Positions 57,464 through 64,000 of a DNA stretch of 64,000 nucleotides are shown here, piece after piece (the stretch's first letter is position 1; each line of letters begins with the position of its first letter). The position numbers and the translations under genes are program-made. Location of the stretch: assembly GCA_020445565.1 (NCBI GenBank), contig JAGRGI010000081.1:4412-68411 (forward strand), read 5' to 3'. The stretch comes from Chromatiales bacterium (GTDB taxonomy: Bacteria; Pseudomonadota; Gammaproteobacteria; JAGRCI01). The notes below the pieces were generated by a model. The model had not been told where the DNA came from. It saw only the letters and a list, made by a program, of their open reading frames with translations, and ran no database searches.

Positions 57464-58378
57464 GTGGACGACTTGCCGAAGACGATGGCGCCGTTTATAC
57501 GTTGGCTCAAATGGGTGTTTTCGGTGCTGGCCTTGGGTTCGATCAGCGTATTTGCATGGCTGTCCCACACGCAAATACTTCAGGTCTTTCAAGAGCGCGA
57601 TACGTCATTGCTGGTAGCGAGCATGGTGGCCTGGGCCCTGCTGCATACGGTCTCCCCGCTCACCAATCGCTGGCTGTTTCAGTCGATCGGACACTCGCTC
57701 GCCTATTCCAATACCTTGTCGATCCACATCCGGAATCTTCCCGCCAAATATCTCCCCGGCGGCATCTGGCATTCCGTTGCACGAGTGGTAAATTATGCCG
57801 AACTGGGTATACCGAAGCGGGATATTGGGGCATATGTGGTGGTCGAGAATCTACTTATTGCGGCCACCGCGCTGGGCCTTGGAGGAGCCTTGACCTTACT
57901 GACTTCAGCTCCAACGGGGGTCTGGTATTGGATTATCCTTGGTCTGGTACTCGCGTCAACGGTAGTGTTTCTGGCGCTGCCTTTTATGGGCGCCTCCCGC
58001 GGCATGACTCTGAAACCAATGTGGTACGGTGGGACCTTTTTGCTGAACACCGGCTACTGGGCGCTGACTGCTTTATCCTTTGCGCTGTTCATGCAAGCGC
58101 TACCGGGAGCTACCAGCGGAGATGCACAAGTCTCTTTAGGAGGTGTTTATATTTTTTCCTGGGGGATTGGTTTCATTACCCCGTTCGCGCCGCAAGGCAT
58201 CGGGGTCTCTGAAGCGGTATCGAGCCAACTGATCCATAGCGACCTATCCGGGGGGAGTCTTTTTGTGCTGGTTGCTAGTTTTCGTGTGGTTGTGCTGTGC
58301 GGCGACTTAAGCGTCTGGTTGGCGTTCTGGATTTATTGGGCGCTACGTTCTCGGATTCAAGCTTTACGACGCAAATAA
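57464..58378 (+). CDS. Lysylphosphatidylglycerol-synthase-TM-like (UPF0104) integral membrane protein; possible flippase
   Basis: 8-TM protein with an LPG_synthase_TM-like organisation. Confidence 0.5.
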   Translation: MDDLPKTMAPFIRWLKWVFSVLALGSISVFAWLSHTQILQVFQERDTSLLVASMVAWALLHTVSPLTNRWLFQSIGHSLAYSNTLSIHIRNLPAKYLPGGIWHSVARVVNYAELGIPKRDIGAYVVVENLLIAATALGLGGALTLLTSAPTGVWYWIILGLVLASTVVFLALPFMGASRGMTLKPMWYGGTFLLNTGYWALTALSFALFMQALPGATSGDAQVSLGGVYIFSWGIGFITPFAPQGIGVSEAVSSQLIHSDLSGGSLFVLVASFRVVVLCGDLSVWLAFWIYWALRSRIQALRRK

Positions 58379-59130
58379 CCACCCGGGGCGACCGTAATCA
58401 TCAATTGATTTTCAATCGATTTATCAATTTCAAATTCCGGGTGTCGCCCAATGAAATCAAGCAACGCGGTTTTTGGATTGTCGCCCTTCGCCCATGGACG
58501 GTTGGCAGAGAGTTCGTCCGGCATATGTTCGACGATGGTGTCGAATACTACGCAATAGCTGTCAACCGTGGTTAGGGATGCGTAGGCTTCCAATTCCGCG
58601 AGGACGTGATTGTGGGTGTGATTGGAATCCAGGCACACGAGTACCCGCTTGTAACTTGCGGCGATATCCCGAACCTGTTCAATAACCTCAGGAGCAATAC
58701 TCGAACCTTGAATCATGCGTATGCGGCCCGCCATCGGATGAGCCTCGATGGCAAGCCGATTGGCTTCGCGAATATCGATGTCGATACCCAACACCATGCG
58801 CTTGGCATTACCACTGATGTTAATATGGTCTCCGTTTTCGATCGCATCGGCCATGTCCAGCAGAGCGAGCATCGAGGCACTAAAAATCAAAGATCCACCG
58901 CGAGCAATACCGGTTTCTATGATCAGGTCCGGCCGCACTCGCCAGATCAACTCTTGCATGCCTACGATGTCTTGCGGATATTGGATTATCGGGCGTCCCA
59001 ACCAGCGGAAATTGTAGGAGTACTGATTCCTCAGCGATGCCTCCATGAAGGCCTTGGCGGTCTCCCGTAACTCAGAGTCGGACCCGTTTGCGGCAATACG
59101 GCCAGCAGTTTCTTGTTCGAAATTACTCAT
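58357..59130 (-). CDS. CmcI ('cephalosporin hydroxylase')-family class I SAM O-methyltransferase, as found in deoxysugar O-methylation
   Basis: IIETGIARGGSLIFSA SAM fold and the characteristic CmcI N-terminus. Confidence 0.65.
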   Translation of the reverse strand: MSNFEQETAGRIAANGSDSELRETAKAFMEASLRNQYSYNFRWLGRPIIQYPQDIVGMQELIWRVRPDLIIETGIARGGSLIFSASMLALLDMADAIENGDHINISGNAKRMVLGIDIDIREANRLAIEAHPMAGRIRMIQGSSIAPEVIEQVRDIAASYKRVLVCLDSNHTHNHVLAELEAYASLTTVDSYCVVFDTIVEHMPDELSANRPWAKGDNPKTALLDFIGRHPEFEIDKSIENQLMITVAPGGYLRRKA

Positions 59131-60199
59131 CGGATGTCACCCGTGAATCTACGCAAACGTAGTGGTAGTGGTCGCCAGACATAGTCCGTATCTCGTCGAA
59201 ATAGTTCGAATTGACAACGAAGATAGTTGCGCCCTTATGCAACCTGGGTAGCGCCGCGCCTGGGGACAGAATAGGCACTCCGGTAACGGGCATGAATTTG
59301 TTTTGTTTTGCAGGATTGATATCGACGGCCAGATCGATCGGTAGTCCGATACGAGATCGCATGAGCGCGAAAATCACCCCTTTGGAACTGGCTCCCCAGA
59401 CCGCGACTGGGGTATGGCTATCTTGGCATATCTGTTTTGCCTCGAACCGCACTGCAAAATTAATACGCTCATGCTCCTGTATGACAGGCAGGCGGATGCT
59501 CGCCAAGTCCGCGACGACGTAGAGATATTGACCACCGAAGAGATGGCCGCTTGCGACGATACGGCCAAATATTCGCGAGAAATCCGTGAGCCTGAAGTAA
59601 TTGACATGCTCGTAGAAGATGTCAAACCAAGCATTGTTTCGGTTGATCCAGTCTAAACATGGCACCTCTATATAAATCAGTCCTTTTTCGGAATTGGCTC
59701 TACTTAGCGACTGCAAAAACGTAATCGGGTCCTGGACGTGTTCCAGGACGTGTCGCAAGACGATGCCATGGGCGTGAATATCCAATTCCTCACGGAAATA
59801 ATGCTGCTGGATGCGCGGATTGTCTCCCTCGTAGGCAGGGTCGAATCCAGTGATGTCGAATCCCTGTTTGAGCAACATCTCCAAGAATCCACCCTTGCCG
59901 CAGCCAACCTCGATAAGTGCCCGCGTACCGAGAGTTCGGCGGATGATGTCGGCAACGTCGTTGAGATGCTTGCAGAAGGTCGCACTTTCGCCCTGTTCAT
60001 TTTGATATTGGGCGTCGTAGGCCATCAACTCAGGCTCAAAAAGCGCATTGTAGACCAAGCCGCTTTGTAGGTCCTCCACTAAGCGAATGTCAGCTTTGGG
60101 GCAGTGAACAGCGCCTTCCTGGCTGTCATAAACCTTGTTCTGAAATACCGGAAATTCAAGAGCTTCGTACAAAACACGGGGGGCGTACGTGCTGATCAT
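59123..60199 (-). CDS. Class I SAM-dependent methyltransferase (sugar-modifying type with a C-terminal Methyltransf_14-like domain)
   Basis: LIEVGCGKGGFL SAM motif; ATGA overlap with the upstream reductase gene. Confidence 0.6.
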   Translation of the reverse strand: MISTYAPRVLYEALEFPVFQNKVYDSQEGAVHCPKADIRLVEDLQSGLVYNALFEPELMAYDAQYQNEQGESATFCKHLNDVADIIRRTLGTRALIEVGCGKGGFLEMLLKQGFDITGFDPAYEGDNPRIQQHYFREELDIHAHGIVLRHVLEHVQDPITFLQSLSRANSEKGLIYIEVPCLDWINRNNAWFDIFYEHVNYFRLTDFSRIFGRIVASGHLFGGQYLYVVADLASIRLPVIQEHERINFAVRFEAKQICQDSHTPVAVWGASSKGVIFALMRSRIGLPIDLAVDINPAKQNKFMPVTGVPILSPGAALPRLHKGATIFVVNSNYFDEIRTMSGDHYHYVCVDSRVTSDE

Positions 60200-62827: not shown

Positions 62828-63909
62828 CAGCGCAGGTGCTCCTGCTGATAACACTGGATCTGCTCACGGGTGAAGAGGCGCATATCCGCCTTATCGCTCC
62901 AGGCCCGGTACCAGCGCACGGTCTCCTCTAAGCCTCTCTCCAACAACCAGGTTGGCTGCCAGCCAAGTTGAGCCTTGGCCTTGTCGCAATTCAGTTGCAA
63001 ATGCTGAGTTTCCTTTGGGTGTTCACCAGGAACCGGGTGCCACTGTGCCCCATCTCCCCAGTGCTCGGCGATACGGGAGGCGAACGCGGCGACCGACTGA
63101 GCATCGGCCAAATCGGGGCCGAAATTCCAACCCGAGGAATATACGTTCGCAGCACTCATTAGTCGCTCACAAAGCATGAGATACCCAGCCACCGGATCGA
63201 GCACATGTTGCCAAGGCCGGGTCGCACCTGGATACCGGATTTCCAGTGATTCGCCTCTTACAAAGGCTGCAATTGCGTCGGGAACAATACGATCTCTGGC
63301 CCAGTCACCACCACCGATCACATTGCCAGCGCGAGCCGTCGCCAAGCCCACGCCGGCCGCACTGAAATAGGACTCCCGATACGCCGCAGCCACCAGCTCG
63401 GCGCACCCCTTACTGCTGCTATACGGGTCATCGCCTCCCATTGGGTCGCTCTCGGCATAGCCGCCGTCGGTAGGCCGATTTGCGTAGCATTTGTCCGAGG
63501 TGATCACCAACACGCTGCGCACGCTTGGGGTAGCGCGCACCGCTTCAAGTACATTCACAGTGCCCATGACGTTCGTTGCATAAGTCAACACAGGTTGGAC
63601 ATAGGATTCGCGCACCAGGGGTTGCGCTGCCAGGTGAATGACGATTTCAGCTCGGGCCTGCGCGATGGCAGCGTGCAGCTGCTGTTGATCGCGAATATCA
63701 CCAATCCCGCTGTGCAGATCTTCGGCGATACCGGCGACCTCAAACAGTGATGGGGTGGTGGGAGGCGCGAGTGAGTACCCGGTAACCCGGGCACCCAAAG
63801 AAACCAACCAGAGGGACAACCACCCCCCCTTGAAGCCGGTATGCCCAGTGATGAAGACGCTGCGCCCCTTCCAGAAACCGATATCGATCGGCACTACCAC
63901 ACCTTCCAT
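62827..63909 (-). CDS. rfbG: CDP-glucose 4,6-dehydratase
   Basis: FWKGRSVFITGHTGFKGGWLSLWL and YSSSKGCAEL. The ATG at 63909 (MEGVVVP...) overlaps the rfbF 3' end. Confidence 0.8.
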   Translation of the reverse strand: MEGVVVPIDIGFWKGRSVFITGHTGFKGGWLSLWLVSLGARVTGYSLAPPTTPSLFEVAGIAEDLHSGIGDIRDQQQLHAAIAQARAEIVIHLAAQPLVRESYVQPVLTYATNVMGTVNVLEAVRATPSVRSVLVITSDKCYANRPTDGGYAESDPMGGDDPYSSSKGCAELVAAAYRESYFSAAGVGLATARAGNVIGGGDWARDRIVPDAIAAFVRGESLEIRYPGATRPWQHVLDPVAGYLMLCERLMSAANVYSSGWNFGPDLADAQSVAAFASRIAEHWGDGAQWHPVPGEHPKETQHLQLNCDKAKAQLGWQPTWLLERGLEETVRWYRAWSDKADMRLFTREQIQCYQQEHLR

Positions 63910-64000
63910 TCGGCTTGGCCGGAATCCCACAGACCACGCAGGTGACGAAGCTCATGCAAAGTGTCCACACACTGCCAGAAACCGGGGTGGCGGTAGGCCA
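63894..64000 (-). CDS. rfbF: Glucose-1-phosphate cytidylyltransferase, 3' end only (5' part beyond the window)
   Basis: The C-terminal peptide GFWQCVDTLHELRHLRGLWDSGQAEWKVW* matches the conserved RfbF C-terminus. Confidence 0.55.
   Translation of the reverse strand, partial: AYRHPGFWQCVDTLHELRHLRGLWDSGQAEWKVW

Follow-up and report, generated by a model that had tools for sequence, protein, structure and literature searches.

The closest described systems are a nucleotide sugar, several antibiotic pathways and a few membrane glycosylation systems. CDP-vinelose (CDP-6-deoxy-3-C-methyl-2-O-methyl-L-talose) is known from the biochemistry of Azotobacter vinelandii in the 1960s, only as the free nucleotide; to our knowledge no genes have been assigned to its biosynthesis, and the literature we searched does not mention vinelose. 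Three-domain, zinc-ribbon sugar C-methyltransferases partnered with an RmlC-like epimerase and a 4-ketoreductase are found in the dTDP pathways of actinomycetes (TylC3/EryBIII for mycarose, TcaB9/KijD1 for tetronitrose/kijanose, MtmC, and NovU for noviose); the noviose set NovT/W/U/S comprises a dehydratase, an RmlC-like enzyme, a C-methyltransferase and a reductase. Among surface glycans, the LPS of Coxiella burnetii contains virenose (6-deoxy-3-C-methyl-D-gulose), associated with the TylCIII-like CBU_0691 (PMC3539893). Pilin is the acceptor of TfpW in Pseudomonas aeruginosa group IV, whose sugar substrate is synthesized in the cytoplasm and carried on polyprenyl phosphate, the donor being decaprenyl-phospho-D-arabinofuranose, with DprE1/DprE2-type genes elsewhere in the genome (bioRxiv 10.1101/2020.04.19.049825).

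Here we describe a locus in a 64,000-nt stretch of Chromatiales DNA (the whole stretch analysed, hereafter the window), where a CDP-sugar cassette adjoins a pilin island. The cassette gene set covers every step to CDP-vinelose and would share with it CDP activation, CDP-glucose 4,6-dehydration, SAM-derived C- and O-methyl groups and an L-series 6-deoxyhexose obtained via an epimerase and a 4-reductase; unlike it, the cassette has three methyltransferases instead of two, and its sugar is tied to a glycosylation island. The C-methyltransferase has the three domains, catalytic residues and enzyme partners of its actinomycete dTDP counterparts, but the carrier is CDP, identity is about 35%, there is an extra zinc-less paralogue, and the hosts are Gram-negative or environmental, with a cell-surface rather than a natural-product context. 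The cassette also differs in having no 2,3-dehydratase or aminotransferase, and therefore the C-2 and C-3 oxygens would be kept. Like virenose, its sugar would be a 3-C-methyl-6-deoxyhexose of a Gram-negative surface glycan that is made with a TylC3-family enzyme, whereas the route proposed for virenose is GDP- or dTDP-linked rather than CDP-linked and involves neither O-methyltransferases nor a pilin context (PMC3539893). As in the TfpW system, the gene immediately following pilA specifies a GT-C enzyme that has a DDx motif and ends in a TPR domain (bioRxiv 10.1101/2020.04.19.049825); unlike that system, the glycosylation island itself carries GT2 genes, a flippase-like protein and the CDP-sugar cassette. 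Its DPM1/GtrB-like GT2, small membrane flippase candidate and GT-C transferase recall the three-component systems GtrA/GtrB/GtrC, ArnC/ArnEF/ArnT and Ppm1/Pmt, from which it differs in that the flippase candidate is MprF-like instead of GtrA- or ArnEF-like, and in its second, soluble GT2. We know of no CDP donor for the DPM1/GtrB-like class, the predicted donor here being CDP-linked. Our reading, which we hold with reasonable though far from full confidence, is that the seven cassette genes constitute one translationally coupled operon making a CDP-activated, branched, multiply methylated 6-deoxyhexose, and that this operon serves the pilin island.

Organization of the CDP-sugar cassette

The minus strand between positions 58357 and 64000 holds seven overlapping genes with intact ORFs whose lengths match those of homologues, which confirms the layout in the original prediction. 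The first, rfbF, exceeds the window, and its 3' end (63894-64000) provides the last 34 codons and the stop. This fragment, translated as AYRHPGFWQCVDTLHELRHLRGLWDSGQAEWKVW, had a sole NCBIfam match, to TIGR02623 (glucose-1-phosphate cytidylyltransferase; positions 222-255 of 255, E = 3e-10), and complete rfbF genes are found upstream of rfbG in other cassettes. RfbG (62827-63909; start candidates GTG 63894, ATG 63909 and GTG 63930) scored 466 bits against the TIGR02622 equivalog for CDP-glucose 4,6-dehydratase (cut-off 278) and failed as a dTDP-glucose dehydratase (TIGR01181, 103 bits against a cut-off of 365). The two genes thus encode CDP rather than dTDP (RmlA/RmlB) enzymes, as had been proposed.

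The RmlC-family protein (62261-62827) matched PF00908 (7.8e-55) and, at 148.1 bits, fell slightly below the cut-off of TIGR01221 (155.75). Its best PDB matches were RmlC enzymes and NovW, at about 1e-34, with the RGLH and Lys motifs present in the alignment, and it is predicted to be an NDP-4-keto-6-deoxyhexose epimerase of the 3,5-, 3- or 5-type. A short-chain dehydrogenase/reductase (SDR; 60196-61041, 281 aa, GTG start; PF01370, 1.3e-24) carries TGGSGFVG and YAAAK motifs, has GDP-6-deoxy-D-mannose reductase and GDP-6-deoxy-D-lyxo-4-hexulose reductase among its PDB matches, and is the predicted NDP-4-ketohexose 4-reductase. The three remaining genes encode methyltransferases.

Serial coupling through ATGA/GTGA overlaps had been suggested for the whole block. 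Overlap is indeed present at all six junctions, but the 4-nt type occurs at only three: ATGA between the epimerase and C-methyltransferase genes, GTGA between the latter and the SDR gene, and ATGA between the SDR gene and the second methyltransferase gene (MT2). The MT2 and CmcI-family genes overlap by 8 nt (ATGAGTAA), rfbG and the epimerase gene by 1 nt (TGATG), and rfbF and rfbG by 1 or 16 nt depending on the choice of rfbG start. Promoter- or terminator-like sites within the seven-gene block did not exceed shuffle expectation.

Three methyltransferases and the predicted sugar

The C-methyltransferase (C-MT; 61038-62264, 408 aa) combines the PF08421 zinc domain, the SAM domain PF13489 and PF08484 (6.7e-60), and aligned end to end with the solved sugar 3-C-methyltransferases KijD1 (2e-75), TcaB9 and MtmC (E values in the PDB search from 2e-75 to 1e-70). 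Identity was 35% to KijD1 and 31% to a homologue on the C-1027 plasmid of Streptomyces globisporus, which may be the 5-C-methyltransferase SgcA3. The residues kept with respect to KijD1 include the four zinc cysteines (Cys3, Cys6, Cys46, Cys49) and the Tyr/His/Tyr-x-Glu-His active-site residues (Tyr68, Tyr70, His173, Tyr214, Glu216, His217). These features place the protein with sugar C-methyltransferases, not with N-methyltransferases or non-sugar enzymes, and support its assignment as a zinc-ribbon NDP-hexose C-methyltransferase of the TylC3/TcaB9/KijD1 type. Its target carbon would most likely be C-3, although the sequence does not discriminate this from C-5, the position used by NovU and SgcA3.

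MT2 (59123-60199, 358 aa) contains PF13489 and PF08484 (27.8 bits against a cut-off of 23.5) and is 25% identical to the adjacent C-MT across both domains (E = 2e-10), while its family profile matches MtmC (4e-9), KijD1 and TcaB9. By these similarities it is a zinc-ribbon-less paralogue of the TylC3-family sugar C-methyltransferases, so that the cassette contains three methyltransferases and a plain vinelose pathway, with one C-methyl and one O-methyl, is excluded. The vinelose-like pathway first proposed is otherwise supported at the level of enzyme families, which make up the set required for a CDP-activated, C-methylated and further methylated 6-deoxyhexose. The third methyltransferase (58357-59130, 257 aa) belongs to the CmcI/rhamnosyl O-methyltransferase family (PF04989; 2e-91, 305.7 bits). 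It is a family member rather than an orthologue of rhamnosyl O-methyltransferase, since it lies far below the NF045824 cut-off (76.6 bits against 400), and is predicted to be a sugar O-methyltransferase. An MT2-CmcI fusion protein (P0218) also exists.

The order of steps and the regio- and stereochemistry that we infer are as follows. RfbF would make CDP-D-glucose, and RfbG would convert it to CDP-4-keto-6-deoxy-D-glucose; the TylC3/TcaB9-type enzyme would form an enolate via the 4-keto group and place a SAM methyl on carbon, most likely C-3; the RmlC-family enzyme would epimerize whichever acidic centre(s) remain, to yield a sugar of the L series; and the SDR would reduce C-4. MT2 and the CmcI-family enzyme would add two further methyl groups, our best guess being O-4 for MT2 and O-2 for CmcI. 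The product would be a 6-deoxy-3-C-methyl-2,4-di-O-methyl-hexose, which is vinelose-like with one methyl more.

The Glu-His dyad typical of C-methyltransferases is preserved in MT2, whose invariant H154 and E197-H198 line up with catalytic His and Glu-His residues of TcaB9-type enzymes, so MT2 might be a second C-methyltransferase instead of an O-methyltransferase. The sugar would then carry C-methyl groups at both C-3 and C-5, and CmcI would provide its only O-methyl group; C-MT could also act on C-5, giving a noviose-like gem-dimethyl sugar, in agreement with the equivalence between the cassette's dehydratase, RmlC-like enzyme, C-MT and reductase and the noviose set, and with NovW being the second-best PDB match of the epimerase (7.8e-34). 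We regard either outcome as quite improbable, given that the solved relatives of C-MT are all 3-C-methyltransferases and that the natural sugars known to us with both a C-methyl and a 2-O-methyl group (vinelose, kansosamine) are 3-C-methyl sugars. MT2 also occurs without C-MT (locus L044), its gene follows the reductase gene, and its presence tracks that of the reductase, not the 4-keto steps: in a Rhodopirellula variant an aminotransferase and a formyltransferase take the place of SDR and MT2 together, while the RmlC-like gene, C-MT and CmcI are kept, which fits MT2 acting on the 4-OH made by the reductase.

The stage at which O-methylation takes place is a separate matter. Rv2959c, a characterized CmcI-family sugar enzyme, methylates rhamnose that is already attached, so O-methylation might not occur on the CDP-sugar; the nucleotide stage would then yield CDP-3-C-methyl-6-deoxyhexose only, to be methylated by MT2 and CmcI after transfer to lipid or glycan. 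Core clusters with C-MT and SDR and without MT2 or CmcI (L095) are in line with this possibility, which we nevertheless find doubtful: MT2 retains the C-terminal domain that helps to bind the nucleotide-sugar in TcaB9-type enzymes, CDP-vinelose illustrates O-methylation on a CDP-sugar in nature, and MT2 and CmcI remain with the cassette even where glycosyltransferase genes are absent nearby, as in Sinorhizobium terangae and a Mycobacterium sp., with no glycosyltransferase within 10 kb of the cassette.

A predicted pilin glycosylation island next to the cassette

On the plus strand, pilS (49181-50791; PF25323 6TM_PilS, HisKA, HATPase_c) and pilR (50863-52191; Response_reg, Sigma54_activat, HTH_8), two-component regulators of pilin expression, identify a pilin locus. 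They are followed by pilA, encoding a type IVa major pilin (52530-53003; PF07963 N_methyl, 1.1e-10; PF00114 Pilin, 1.7e-10) whose true start is probably an internal ATG. Directly 3' of pilA lies a gene for a 646-aa protein of GT-C fold that contains a DDx motif and, C-terminally, a TPR domain (53212-55152), likened to TfpW on the basis of fold, motifs and gene position; its best structural match was the protein O-mannosyltransferase Pmt4, and it is a predicted pilin O-glycosyltransferase.

The next gene (55165-56127) encodes GT2a, a 320-aa polyprenyl-phosphate glycosyltransferase with a C-terminal membrane anchor, which by its NCBIfam (AglJ, 4e-37; dolichyl-phosphate hexose transferase, 4e-23) and PDB matches (DPMS 5mlz, 3e-15; GtrB 5ekp over residues 18-297; ArnC) is of the DPM1/GtrB/ArnC/AglJ type. 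GT2a may not be the user of the CDP-sugar, since the GT2 encoded behind the TfpW-like gene of L098, an island without the CDP cassette, shares 54% identity with it. A candidate for transferring the cassette sugar is GT2b, a soluble 288-aa family-2 glycosyltransferase (56593-57459; PF00535, 3.3e-27), because its relatives precede or follow the cassette in many genomes: orthologues with 48-52% identity are present in L043, L087 and L135, and GT2 genes with 25-33% identity directly adjoin the cassette in many non-pilin loci.

The last island gene (57464-58378), whose 3' end overlaps that of the CmcI-family gene by 22 nt, encodes a polytopic 304-aa membrane protein (TM304). TM304 itself had no Pfam match; PF03706 was matched by 22 of 54 members of its family (best 1.2e-13; the L043 orthologue, 1.8e-7), and transitive homology makes it a divergent, MprF-flippase-like member of LPG_synthase_TM and a candidate flippase for a lipid-linked sugar. 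LPG_synthase_TM proteins hold the equivalent place in other TfpW-like islands, which share the pilA, TfpW-like, GT2 and LPG_synthase_TM genes and differ in the tailoring genes of a variable slot.

On this reading, the cassette would determine which sugar a TfpW-type island for pilin O-glycosylation employs. We infer that undecaprenyl phosphate would receive the sugar from GT2a directly, or from GT2b onto a first sugar placed by GT2a, that TM304 would flip the lipid-linked sugar, and that the GT-C/TPR enzyme would move it to pilin Ser/Thr in the periplasm. The G+C content of the island, 0.45-0.59, is below that of the remainder of the window (0.61).

Distribution of the cassette and linkage to pilin genes

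Relatives of MT2, with generic annotations only, were present in 432 of 185,579 species genomes from many phyla, and more than 8000 protein clusters matched C-MT, so the rarity of branched-chain sugars in Gram-negative surface glycans, as first assumed, does not extend to the genomic capacity for CDP-linked branched sugars. The best 80 of the 432 species loci were looked at, and none of these 80 was from Azotobacter. Where the flank was long enough, 52 of 56 genome loci held all seven genes, as did 21 of 27 metagenome loci; gene order was identical in 31 cassette loci. The taxa comprise Alpha-, Beta- and Gammaproteobacteria, Desulfobulbia, Chlorobiaceae, Planctomycetia, Verrucomicrobia, Bacteroidota and Mycobacterium.

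Pilin genes are absent from the vicinity of most of the 80 genome loci, and in L011/L012 and L094 the cassette precedes a Wzx flippase and glycosyltransferase genes, as is typical of polysaccharide clusters. Together with the settings devoid of glycosyltransferases, this indicates that the sugar is not pilin-specific. It could here be made for LPS O-antigen, capsule or EPS, two blocks acquired horizontally having ended up adjacent by chance: the TfpW/GT2a block (G+C 0.45) and the cassette (0.51-0.59) differ in base composition, and further glycan genes could follow beyond rfbF, where the window stops. This alternative seems unlikely in view of the recurrent linkage. In other lineages, at least five further fuller loci (L043, L087, L107, L126, L135) and one partial locus (L024) have the cassette beside pilA, TfpW-like and GT2 genes, the gene content being the same and the order rearranged, which strengthens the suggestion that it feeds a pilin glycan; the cassette probably supplies an unusual sugar for the decoration of type IV pili. 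GT2b and TM304 travel with the cassette in L087 and L135, and in L087 the entire cassette-island unit sits between pilB-pilC and pilA-pilR-pilS, leaving no space for a separate polysaccharide locus.

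Architecture of the seven-gene cassette

The minus strand from position 58357 to the end of the window at 64000 contains six ORFs in full and a seventh of which only the last 34 codons fall inside the window. In the direction of transcription these are rfbF (3' end), rfbG, an RmlC-like epimerase gene, a C-methyltransferase gene (C-MT, 61038-62264, 408 aa), an SDR gene, a second methyltransferase gene (MT2, 59123-60199, 358 aa) and a CmcI gene (58357-59130). The original prediction described them as serially coupled by ATGA or GTGA overlaps, and the label is right in that all neighbouring pairs overlap, although the 4-nt type occurs at just three junctions: ATGA between the RmlC-like and C-MT genes, GTGA between the C-MT and SDR genes, and ATGA between the SDR and MT2 genes. 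MT2 and CmcI share 8 nt (ATGAGTAA), rfbG and the RmlC-like gene 1 nt (TGATG), and rfbF and rfbG either 1 or 16 nt, according to which start codon is chosen. Promoter- or terminator-like sites beyond the shuffle expectation were not found within the block, and the operon looks intact, since its ORF lengths equal those of homologues elsewhere. For the sequence upstream of rfbF, exact-protein look-up with two RfbG start variants gave no match, nor did a search of JGI metagenomes for exact copies of a 40-mer of the rfbF fragment; look-ups with the C-MT and CmcI sequences retrieved nothing but contigs of the same population, 1.5-5.6 kb long.

At its downstream end the cassette converges with the plus-strand gene for TM304, a flippase-like membrane protein of 304 aa. 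The 3' ends of this gene and CmcI overlap by 22 nt (58357-58378), which leaves no space in which a terminator could separate the two operons. The same overlap is present in the gene calls of two contigs from the population (L003 and L004), and a similar one in L005.

A predicted CDP-linked pathway with a sugar C-methyltransferase

RfbG scored 466 bits against the curated equivalog model for CDP-glucose 4,6-dehydratase (TIGR02622, cut-off 278.45) and remained below the models for the dTDP-glucose (TIGR01181, 103 bits, cut-off 365) and GDP-mannose (TIGR01472, 56.6 bits, cut-off 415) enzymes, which bears out its earlier assignment as a CDP-glucose dehydratase and not a dTDP enzyme. The 34 residues of RfbF present in the window had TIGR02623 as their sole NCBIfam match (positions 222-255 of 255, E = 3e-10), and a full-length RfbF (474 bits against TIGR02623, cut-off 300) is encoded at the orthologous position of L011, a comparison locus with the same cassette. 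The epimerase belongs to the RmlC family (PF00908, 185.6 bits, 7.8e-55) and scored below the cut-off of the RmlC equivalog model (TIGR01221, 148.1 bits, cut-off 155.75), as would be expected if it used another nucleotide and consistent with a CDP substrate. The SDR, of 281 aa, has the glycine-rich and YxxxK motifs and is a distant relative of GDP-4-keto-6-deoxyhexose reductases.

The three-domain architecture of the C-MT is complete, with an N-terminal zinc ribbon (PF08421, 5.2e-22), a SAM domain (PF13489, 8e-18) and the C-terminal domain PF08484 (6.7e-60). Full-length alignments to the solved sugar 3-C-methyltransferases KijD1, MtmC and TcaB9 gave E values between 2e-75 and 1e-70, those with KijD1 and TcaB9 covering residues 2-407. 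The cysteines C3, C6, C46 and C49 are identical to KijD1 chain positions 15, 18, 56 and 59, and Y68, Y70, H173, Y214, E216 and H217 to positions 78, 80, 183, 224, 226 and 227; by matching to the published TcaB9 numbering, we take these to be the zinc and catalytic sites. With this end-to-end alignment and the conserved cysteines and catalytic residues, the enzyme groups with sugar C-methyltransferases, as originally proposed. Judging from these relatives, it would methylate the enolisable carbon beside the keto group, most likely C-3. Methylation at C-5 would be the alternative, and a homologue on a Streptomyces globisporus plasmid is a putative 5-C-methyltransferase. The three solved relatives are 3-C-methyltransferases; in a tree, the actinomycete dTDP enzymes would probably group by lineage whatever their regiochemistry.

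Most known examples of branched, methylated deoxysugars occur in actinomycete antibiotics and are carried on dTDP, and the chemical precedents of the cassette include, besides CDP-vinelose, the dTDP-linked routes to mycarose, noviose and tetronitrose. The C-MT matched more than 8000 protein clusters, and the best 120 of these are 63-67% identical to it, almost all 408-415 aa long, and come from many phyla. The capacity for CDP-linked branched sugars is thus much less rare in genomes than characterised glycans suggest, and the view that such sugars are rare in Gram-negative surface glycans may hold for the glycans characterised so far and not for genomic capacity. A homologue 51% identical to that of the window was also seen on the virulence-associated plasmids (~33 kb) of Brachyspira hyodysenteriae.

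Two additional methyltransferases and the relation to vinelose

MT2, originally listed as a further SAM methyltransferase, does belong to that class, but it is not a generic member: it is a paralogue of the C-MT that lacks the zinc ribbon. It had no PF08421 match and no cysteine pairs among its N-terminal 60 residues, while its C-terminal PF08484 domain scored 27.8 bits (cut-off 23.5) and it aligned with the adjacent C-MT over both domains (25% identity, E = 2e-10). The best solved relatives of the family profile were MtmC (4e-9, positions 63-338), KijD1 and TcaB9. In an alignment of 15 sequences H154, E197 and H198 are invariant and align with catalytic residues of the C-methyltransferase family, and Phe195 takes the place of the C-methyltransferase tyrosine. 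CmcI is a member of the CmcI/rhamnosyl O-methyltransferase family (PF04989, 305.7 bits, cut-off 23.2) and not an orthologue of the mycobacterial Rv2959c-type rhamnosyl O-methyltransferase (NF045824, 76.6 bits, cut-off 400); its sequence had no match in the PDB at E <= 0.001. A metagenome protein of 605 aa from JGI (P0218) is a natural MT2-CmcI fusion, in which MT2 forms residues 1 to ~350, so that the order of the two parts matches that of the overlapping genes in the window.

As for the positions modified, our guess is that MT2 may act at the 4-OH, given that it tracks the 4-reductase in cassette variants, and, by analogy with vinelose-type sugars, that CmcI may act at O-2. Double C-methylation would be a rival reading, in line with the invariant H154, E197 and H198 of MT2; the association with the 4-reductase points instead to the hydroxyl at C-4. 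It is also possible that O-methylation takes place only after the sugar has been transferred. We favour methylation of the nucleotide sugar by both enzymes; the specific structure proposed on this basis, a 3-C-methyl-2,4-di-O-methyl sugar, has a rather low probability.

The enzyme set had been considered a match for CDP-vinelose. The CDP carrier and the families of C- and O-methylating enzymes agree with this, but CDP-vinelose carries one C-methylation and one O-methylation on CDP-6-deoxy-L-talose, while the window operon has three methyltransferase genes, one more than needed, and the three are kept together in 52 of 56 well-flanked genome loci. Azotobacter was not represented among the best 80 of the 432 MT2 loci, vinelose was not mentioned in the literature searched, and its pathway genes were not found assigned anywhere. 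Literature on CDP-glucose together with C-methyltransferases, on cephalosporin hydroxylase together with cytidylyltransferases, or on 3-C-methyl di-O-methyl sugars of glycopeptidolipids yielded nothing useful, the virenose of Coxiella being the only related sugar pathway met in the literature search (PMC3539893). At the level of genes, the cassette is a concrete candidate for the pathway to CDP-vinelose. Its enzymes belong to known families; as a conserved seven-gene CDP unit it appears to be new, no description having been found in the literature searched and its annotation being generic, and the same applies to the presence in it of a second, zinc-less methyltransferase of the TylC3 family.

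Distribution and variants of the cassette

Scanning one genome per species with an alignment of MT2 detected relatives in 432 of 185,579 species. Loci were counted among the best 80 of these 432, of which 56 had enough flanking DNA; all seven genes lay within 8 kb in the 52 loci mentioned, and 31 of the 56 had exactly the gene order of the window. The cassette was also complete in 21 of 27 adequate metagenome loci. Among the proteobacterial hosts are Sinorhizobium/Ensifer, Neorhizobium, Rhizobium, Paraburkholderia, Thiobacillus, Sulfuritalea and roseobacters; the other hosts comprise Desulfobulbaceae (one of them a cable bacterium), Chlorobiaceae, Planctomycetia, Verrucomicrobia, a Cryomorphaceae MAG, and Mycobacterium gordonae with its relatives. 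Carriers available in culture are Sinorhizobium terangae, Neorhizobium galegae, Mycobacterium gordonae, Paraburkholderia sartisoli and Desulfolutivibrio sulfodismutans. This is a compact and widespread CDP-linked branched-sugar pathway, extending over proteobacteria, Chlorobiaceae, planctomycetes, Bacteroidota and mycobacteria, and its enzymes are potential glyco-engineering parts for C-methyl sugars on a CDP carrier. In Desulfolutivibrio sulfodismutans the complete cassette is located beside glycosyltransferase genes on plasmid p1 (51.7 kb, NZ_CP045505.1 7888-14611, L097), where the methyltransferases are annotated merely as class I SAM-dependent methyltransferases. A CmcI-like ORF in this locus (L097:11052-11741) is absent from the distributed gene table.

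Some slots of the cassette vary. In the reductase slot (loci L013-L092) two unrelated SDR types are found in otherwise identical cassettes, one 45-58% identical to that of the window (55 loci) and the other 26-35% identical (19 loci), as exemplified by L011:9127-9999 versus L009:9150-9977; this suggests products epimeric at C-4. In Rhodopirellula sp. P2 (L093:7441-12570, CP118225.1) the RmlC-like gene, the C-MT gene (65% identical) and CmcI are accompanied by genes for a DegT aminotransferase, a formyltransferase and a WbqC-like protein in place of the SDR and MT2, and the predicted product would be a kansosamine-type 4-formamido-4,6-dideoxy-C-methyl-O-methyl sugar. Another cluster has the core genes without MT2 or CmcI, and in locus L044 MT2 is present without the C-MT. 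The match on pSymB of Sinorhizobium meliloti 1021 (L096, NC_003078.1 685900-706973) was rejected as a cassette, being more distant and part of a different cluster: it comprises an RfbF-like gene (48%), a C-MT (39%), two MT2-like genes (31% and 29%) and one GT2, and the searched copy was unannotated.

Association with TfpW-like pilin glycosylation islands

The plus-strand genes upstream of the cassette include pilS, pilR and pilA. A gene that starts 209 nt past pilA encodes a protein of 646 aa whose model (pLDDT 90) shows membrane helices followed by TPR helices, and in which D40, D41, Y285 and P292 are kept in 28 homologues. The described features of TfpW are a position directly 3' of pilA, a multi-pass membrane domain, a TPR region at the C-terminus, a DDx motif within the first periplasmic loop and a Y-x6-P motif (bioRxiv 10.1101/2020.04.19.049825). 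Compared by these features with Pseudomonas aeruginosa TfpW, the precedent for pilA-adjacent GT-C pilin glycosylation, the protein is TfpW-like, including its GT-C fold. The island showed no DprE1- or DprE2-like genes, and its sugar donor is therefore expected to be unlike the polyprenyl-phospho-D-arabinofuranose of TfpW.

Two glycosyltransferases follow. GT2a (320 aa) has a GT-A domain and C-terminal membrane helices and is homologous to GtrB over its full length (sll0501, 7e-11, residues 18-297); it also resembles dolichyl-phosphate mannose synthase (3.4e-15) and ArnC (5e-7), which makes it a polyprenyl-phosphate glycosyltransferase, and its match to the AglJ model (4e-37) lies under the cut-off of that model. 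GT2b is a soluble family-2 glycosyltransferase of 288 aa. TM304 itself had no Pfam match even at E <= 10, whereas 22 of 54 homologues matched PF03706 (LPG_synthase_TM, MprF flippase-like), the best with 1.2e-13; the orthologue in L043, a Sulfurimicrobium MAG locus, did so with 1.8e-7 (31.4 bits, cut-off 33.4). Comparison of the TM304 family profile with MprF structures was marginal (E = 0.055), hhalign of small TM304 profiles (3 and 2 sequences) gave 2.8% probability, and the single-sequence AlphaFold model had a pLDDT of 46. TM304 is thus a candidate member of the MprF-flippase-like family through the transitive Pfam matches of its homologues.

It had been suggested that the position of the cassette beside this island hints at the supply of a pilin or surface glycan, and the suggestion gains weight from the recurrence of the arrangement. 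The cassette adjoins the same island genes in L043, in a gammaproteobacterial MAG (L087) and in the metagenome loci L107, L126 and L135, and partly in a Thiobacillus MAG (L024); none of the hosts with this linkage is cultured. Gene order is rearranged among the linked loci; in L087 and L135 GT2b and the flippase-like gene precede rfbF on the same strand as the cassette, and in L087 pilC-pilB and pilA-pilR-pilS flank the whole unit at opposite ends. Constant gene content combined with shifting order in several lineages speaks for a functional link. Other TfpW-like islands have in common pilA, the TfpW-like gene, a GT2 (54% identical to GT2a in one case) and an LPG_synthase_TM protein, and differ in the tailoring genes located between these, for example those for an aminotransferase plus a methyltransferase in one case and for an acetyltransferase, a sulfotransferase plus a methyltransferase in another. 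The repeated insertion of the cassette suggests a constant core (pilA, GT-C/TPR, DPM1-like GT2, MprF-like flippase) and an exchangeable slot that specifies the sugar. The cassette as a recurrent variable module of TfpW-type islands with a DPM1-like GT2 and an MprF-like flippase also appears new relative to the literature searched.

The cassette is not pilin-specific, though. In L011 and L094 it lies within Wzx-type polysaccharide clusters, and in Sinorhizobium terangae (L009) and Mycobacterium sp. 1245805.9 (L010) among housekeeping genes (ABC transporter genes and ilvBNC, respectively), with no glycosyltransferase called within 10 kb; across the loci, the most frequent neighbour of the cassette is a GT2 related to GT2b. 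The polysaccharide clusters would fit a sugar destined for LPS or EPS, and the recurrent adjacency to pilA and the TfpW-like gene speaks for the pilin, which we regard, with some reserve, as the probable target in this genome.

In the route we propose, RfbF and RfbG would produce CDP-4-keto-6-deoxy-D-glucose and, once the C-MT has acted, the RmlC-like enzyme would epimerise what is left, the SDR would reduce C-4, and MT2 and CmcI would add two further methyl groups. The sugar could then be placed on undecaprenyl phosphate by GT2a directly, or added by GT2b to an Und-P-sugar made by GT2a, after which the MprF-like protein would flip the lipid-linked sugar and the TfpW-like GT-C enzyme would pass it to pilin. 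That the pathway is of the CDP, 6-deoxy, C-methyl and further methylated class is very probable. It is quite improbable that all of the following hold jointly, namely that the cassette is the genetic basis of the CDP-branched-sugar (vinelose-type) pathway, that MT2 is a second C-methyltransferase, and that the product is a doubly C-methylated, O-methylated 6-deoxyhexose new from nature, capping type IV pilin via an undecaprenyl-phosphate/PMT-like route; if true, this would represent a new pilin-glycan class and the first CDP-sugar-dependent polyprenyl-phosphate glycosylation system. Pilin glycans are reported to block pilus-specific phages (bioRxiv 10.1101/150227), and pili decorated with a hydrophobic, fully capped methyl sugar would thus matter for phage resistance and surface adhesion.

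The lower G+C content of the island (0.45-0.59, against 0.61 in the rest of the window) fits horizontal acquisition, and scans of the island detected no tRNA and no promoters or terminators beyond chance level. Between GT2a and GT2b there are 465 bp (56128-56592) with no ORF of at least 60 aa, while the two genes overlap in L043; this stretch may be a seam between a pilA/TfpW/GT2a block (G+C 0.45) and a GT2b/flippase/cassette block (0.51-0.59). L087 has a tandem pair of TfpW-like GT-C/TPR genes (685 and 679 aa; 12863-17160, minus strand) between pilA and GT2a, where the window has one, and the pair could be transferases for different acceptor sites or sugars.
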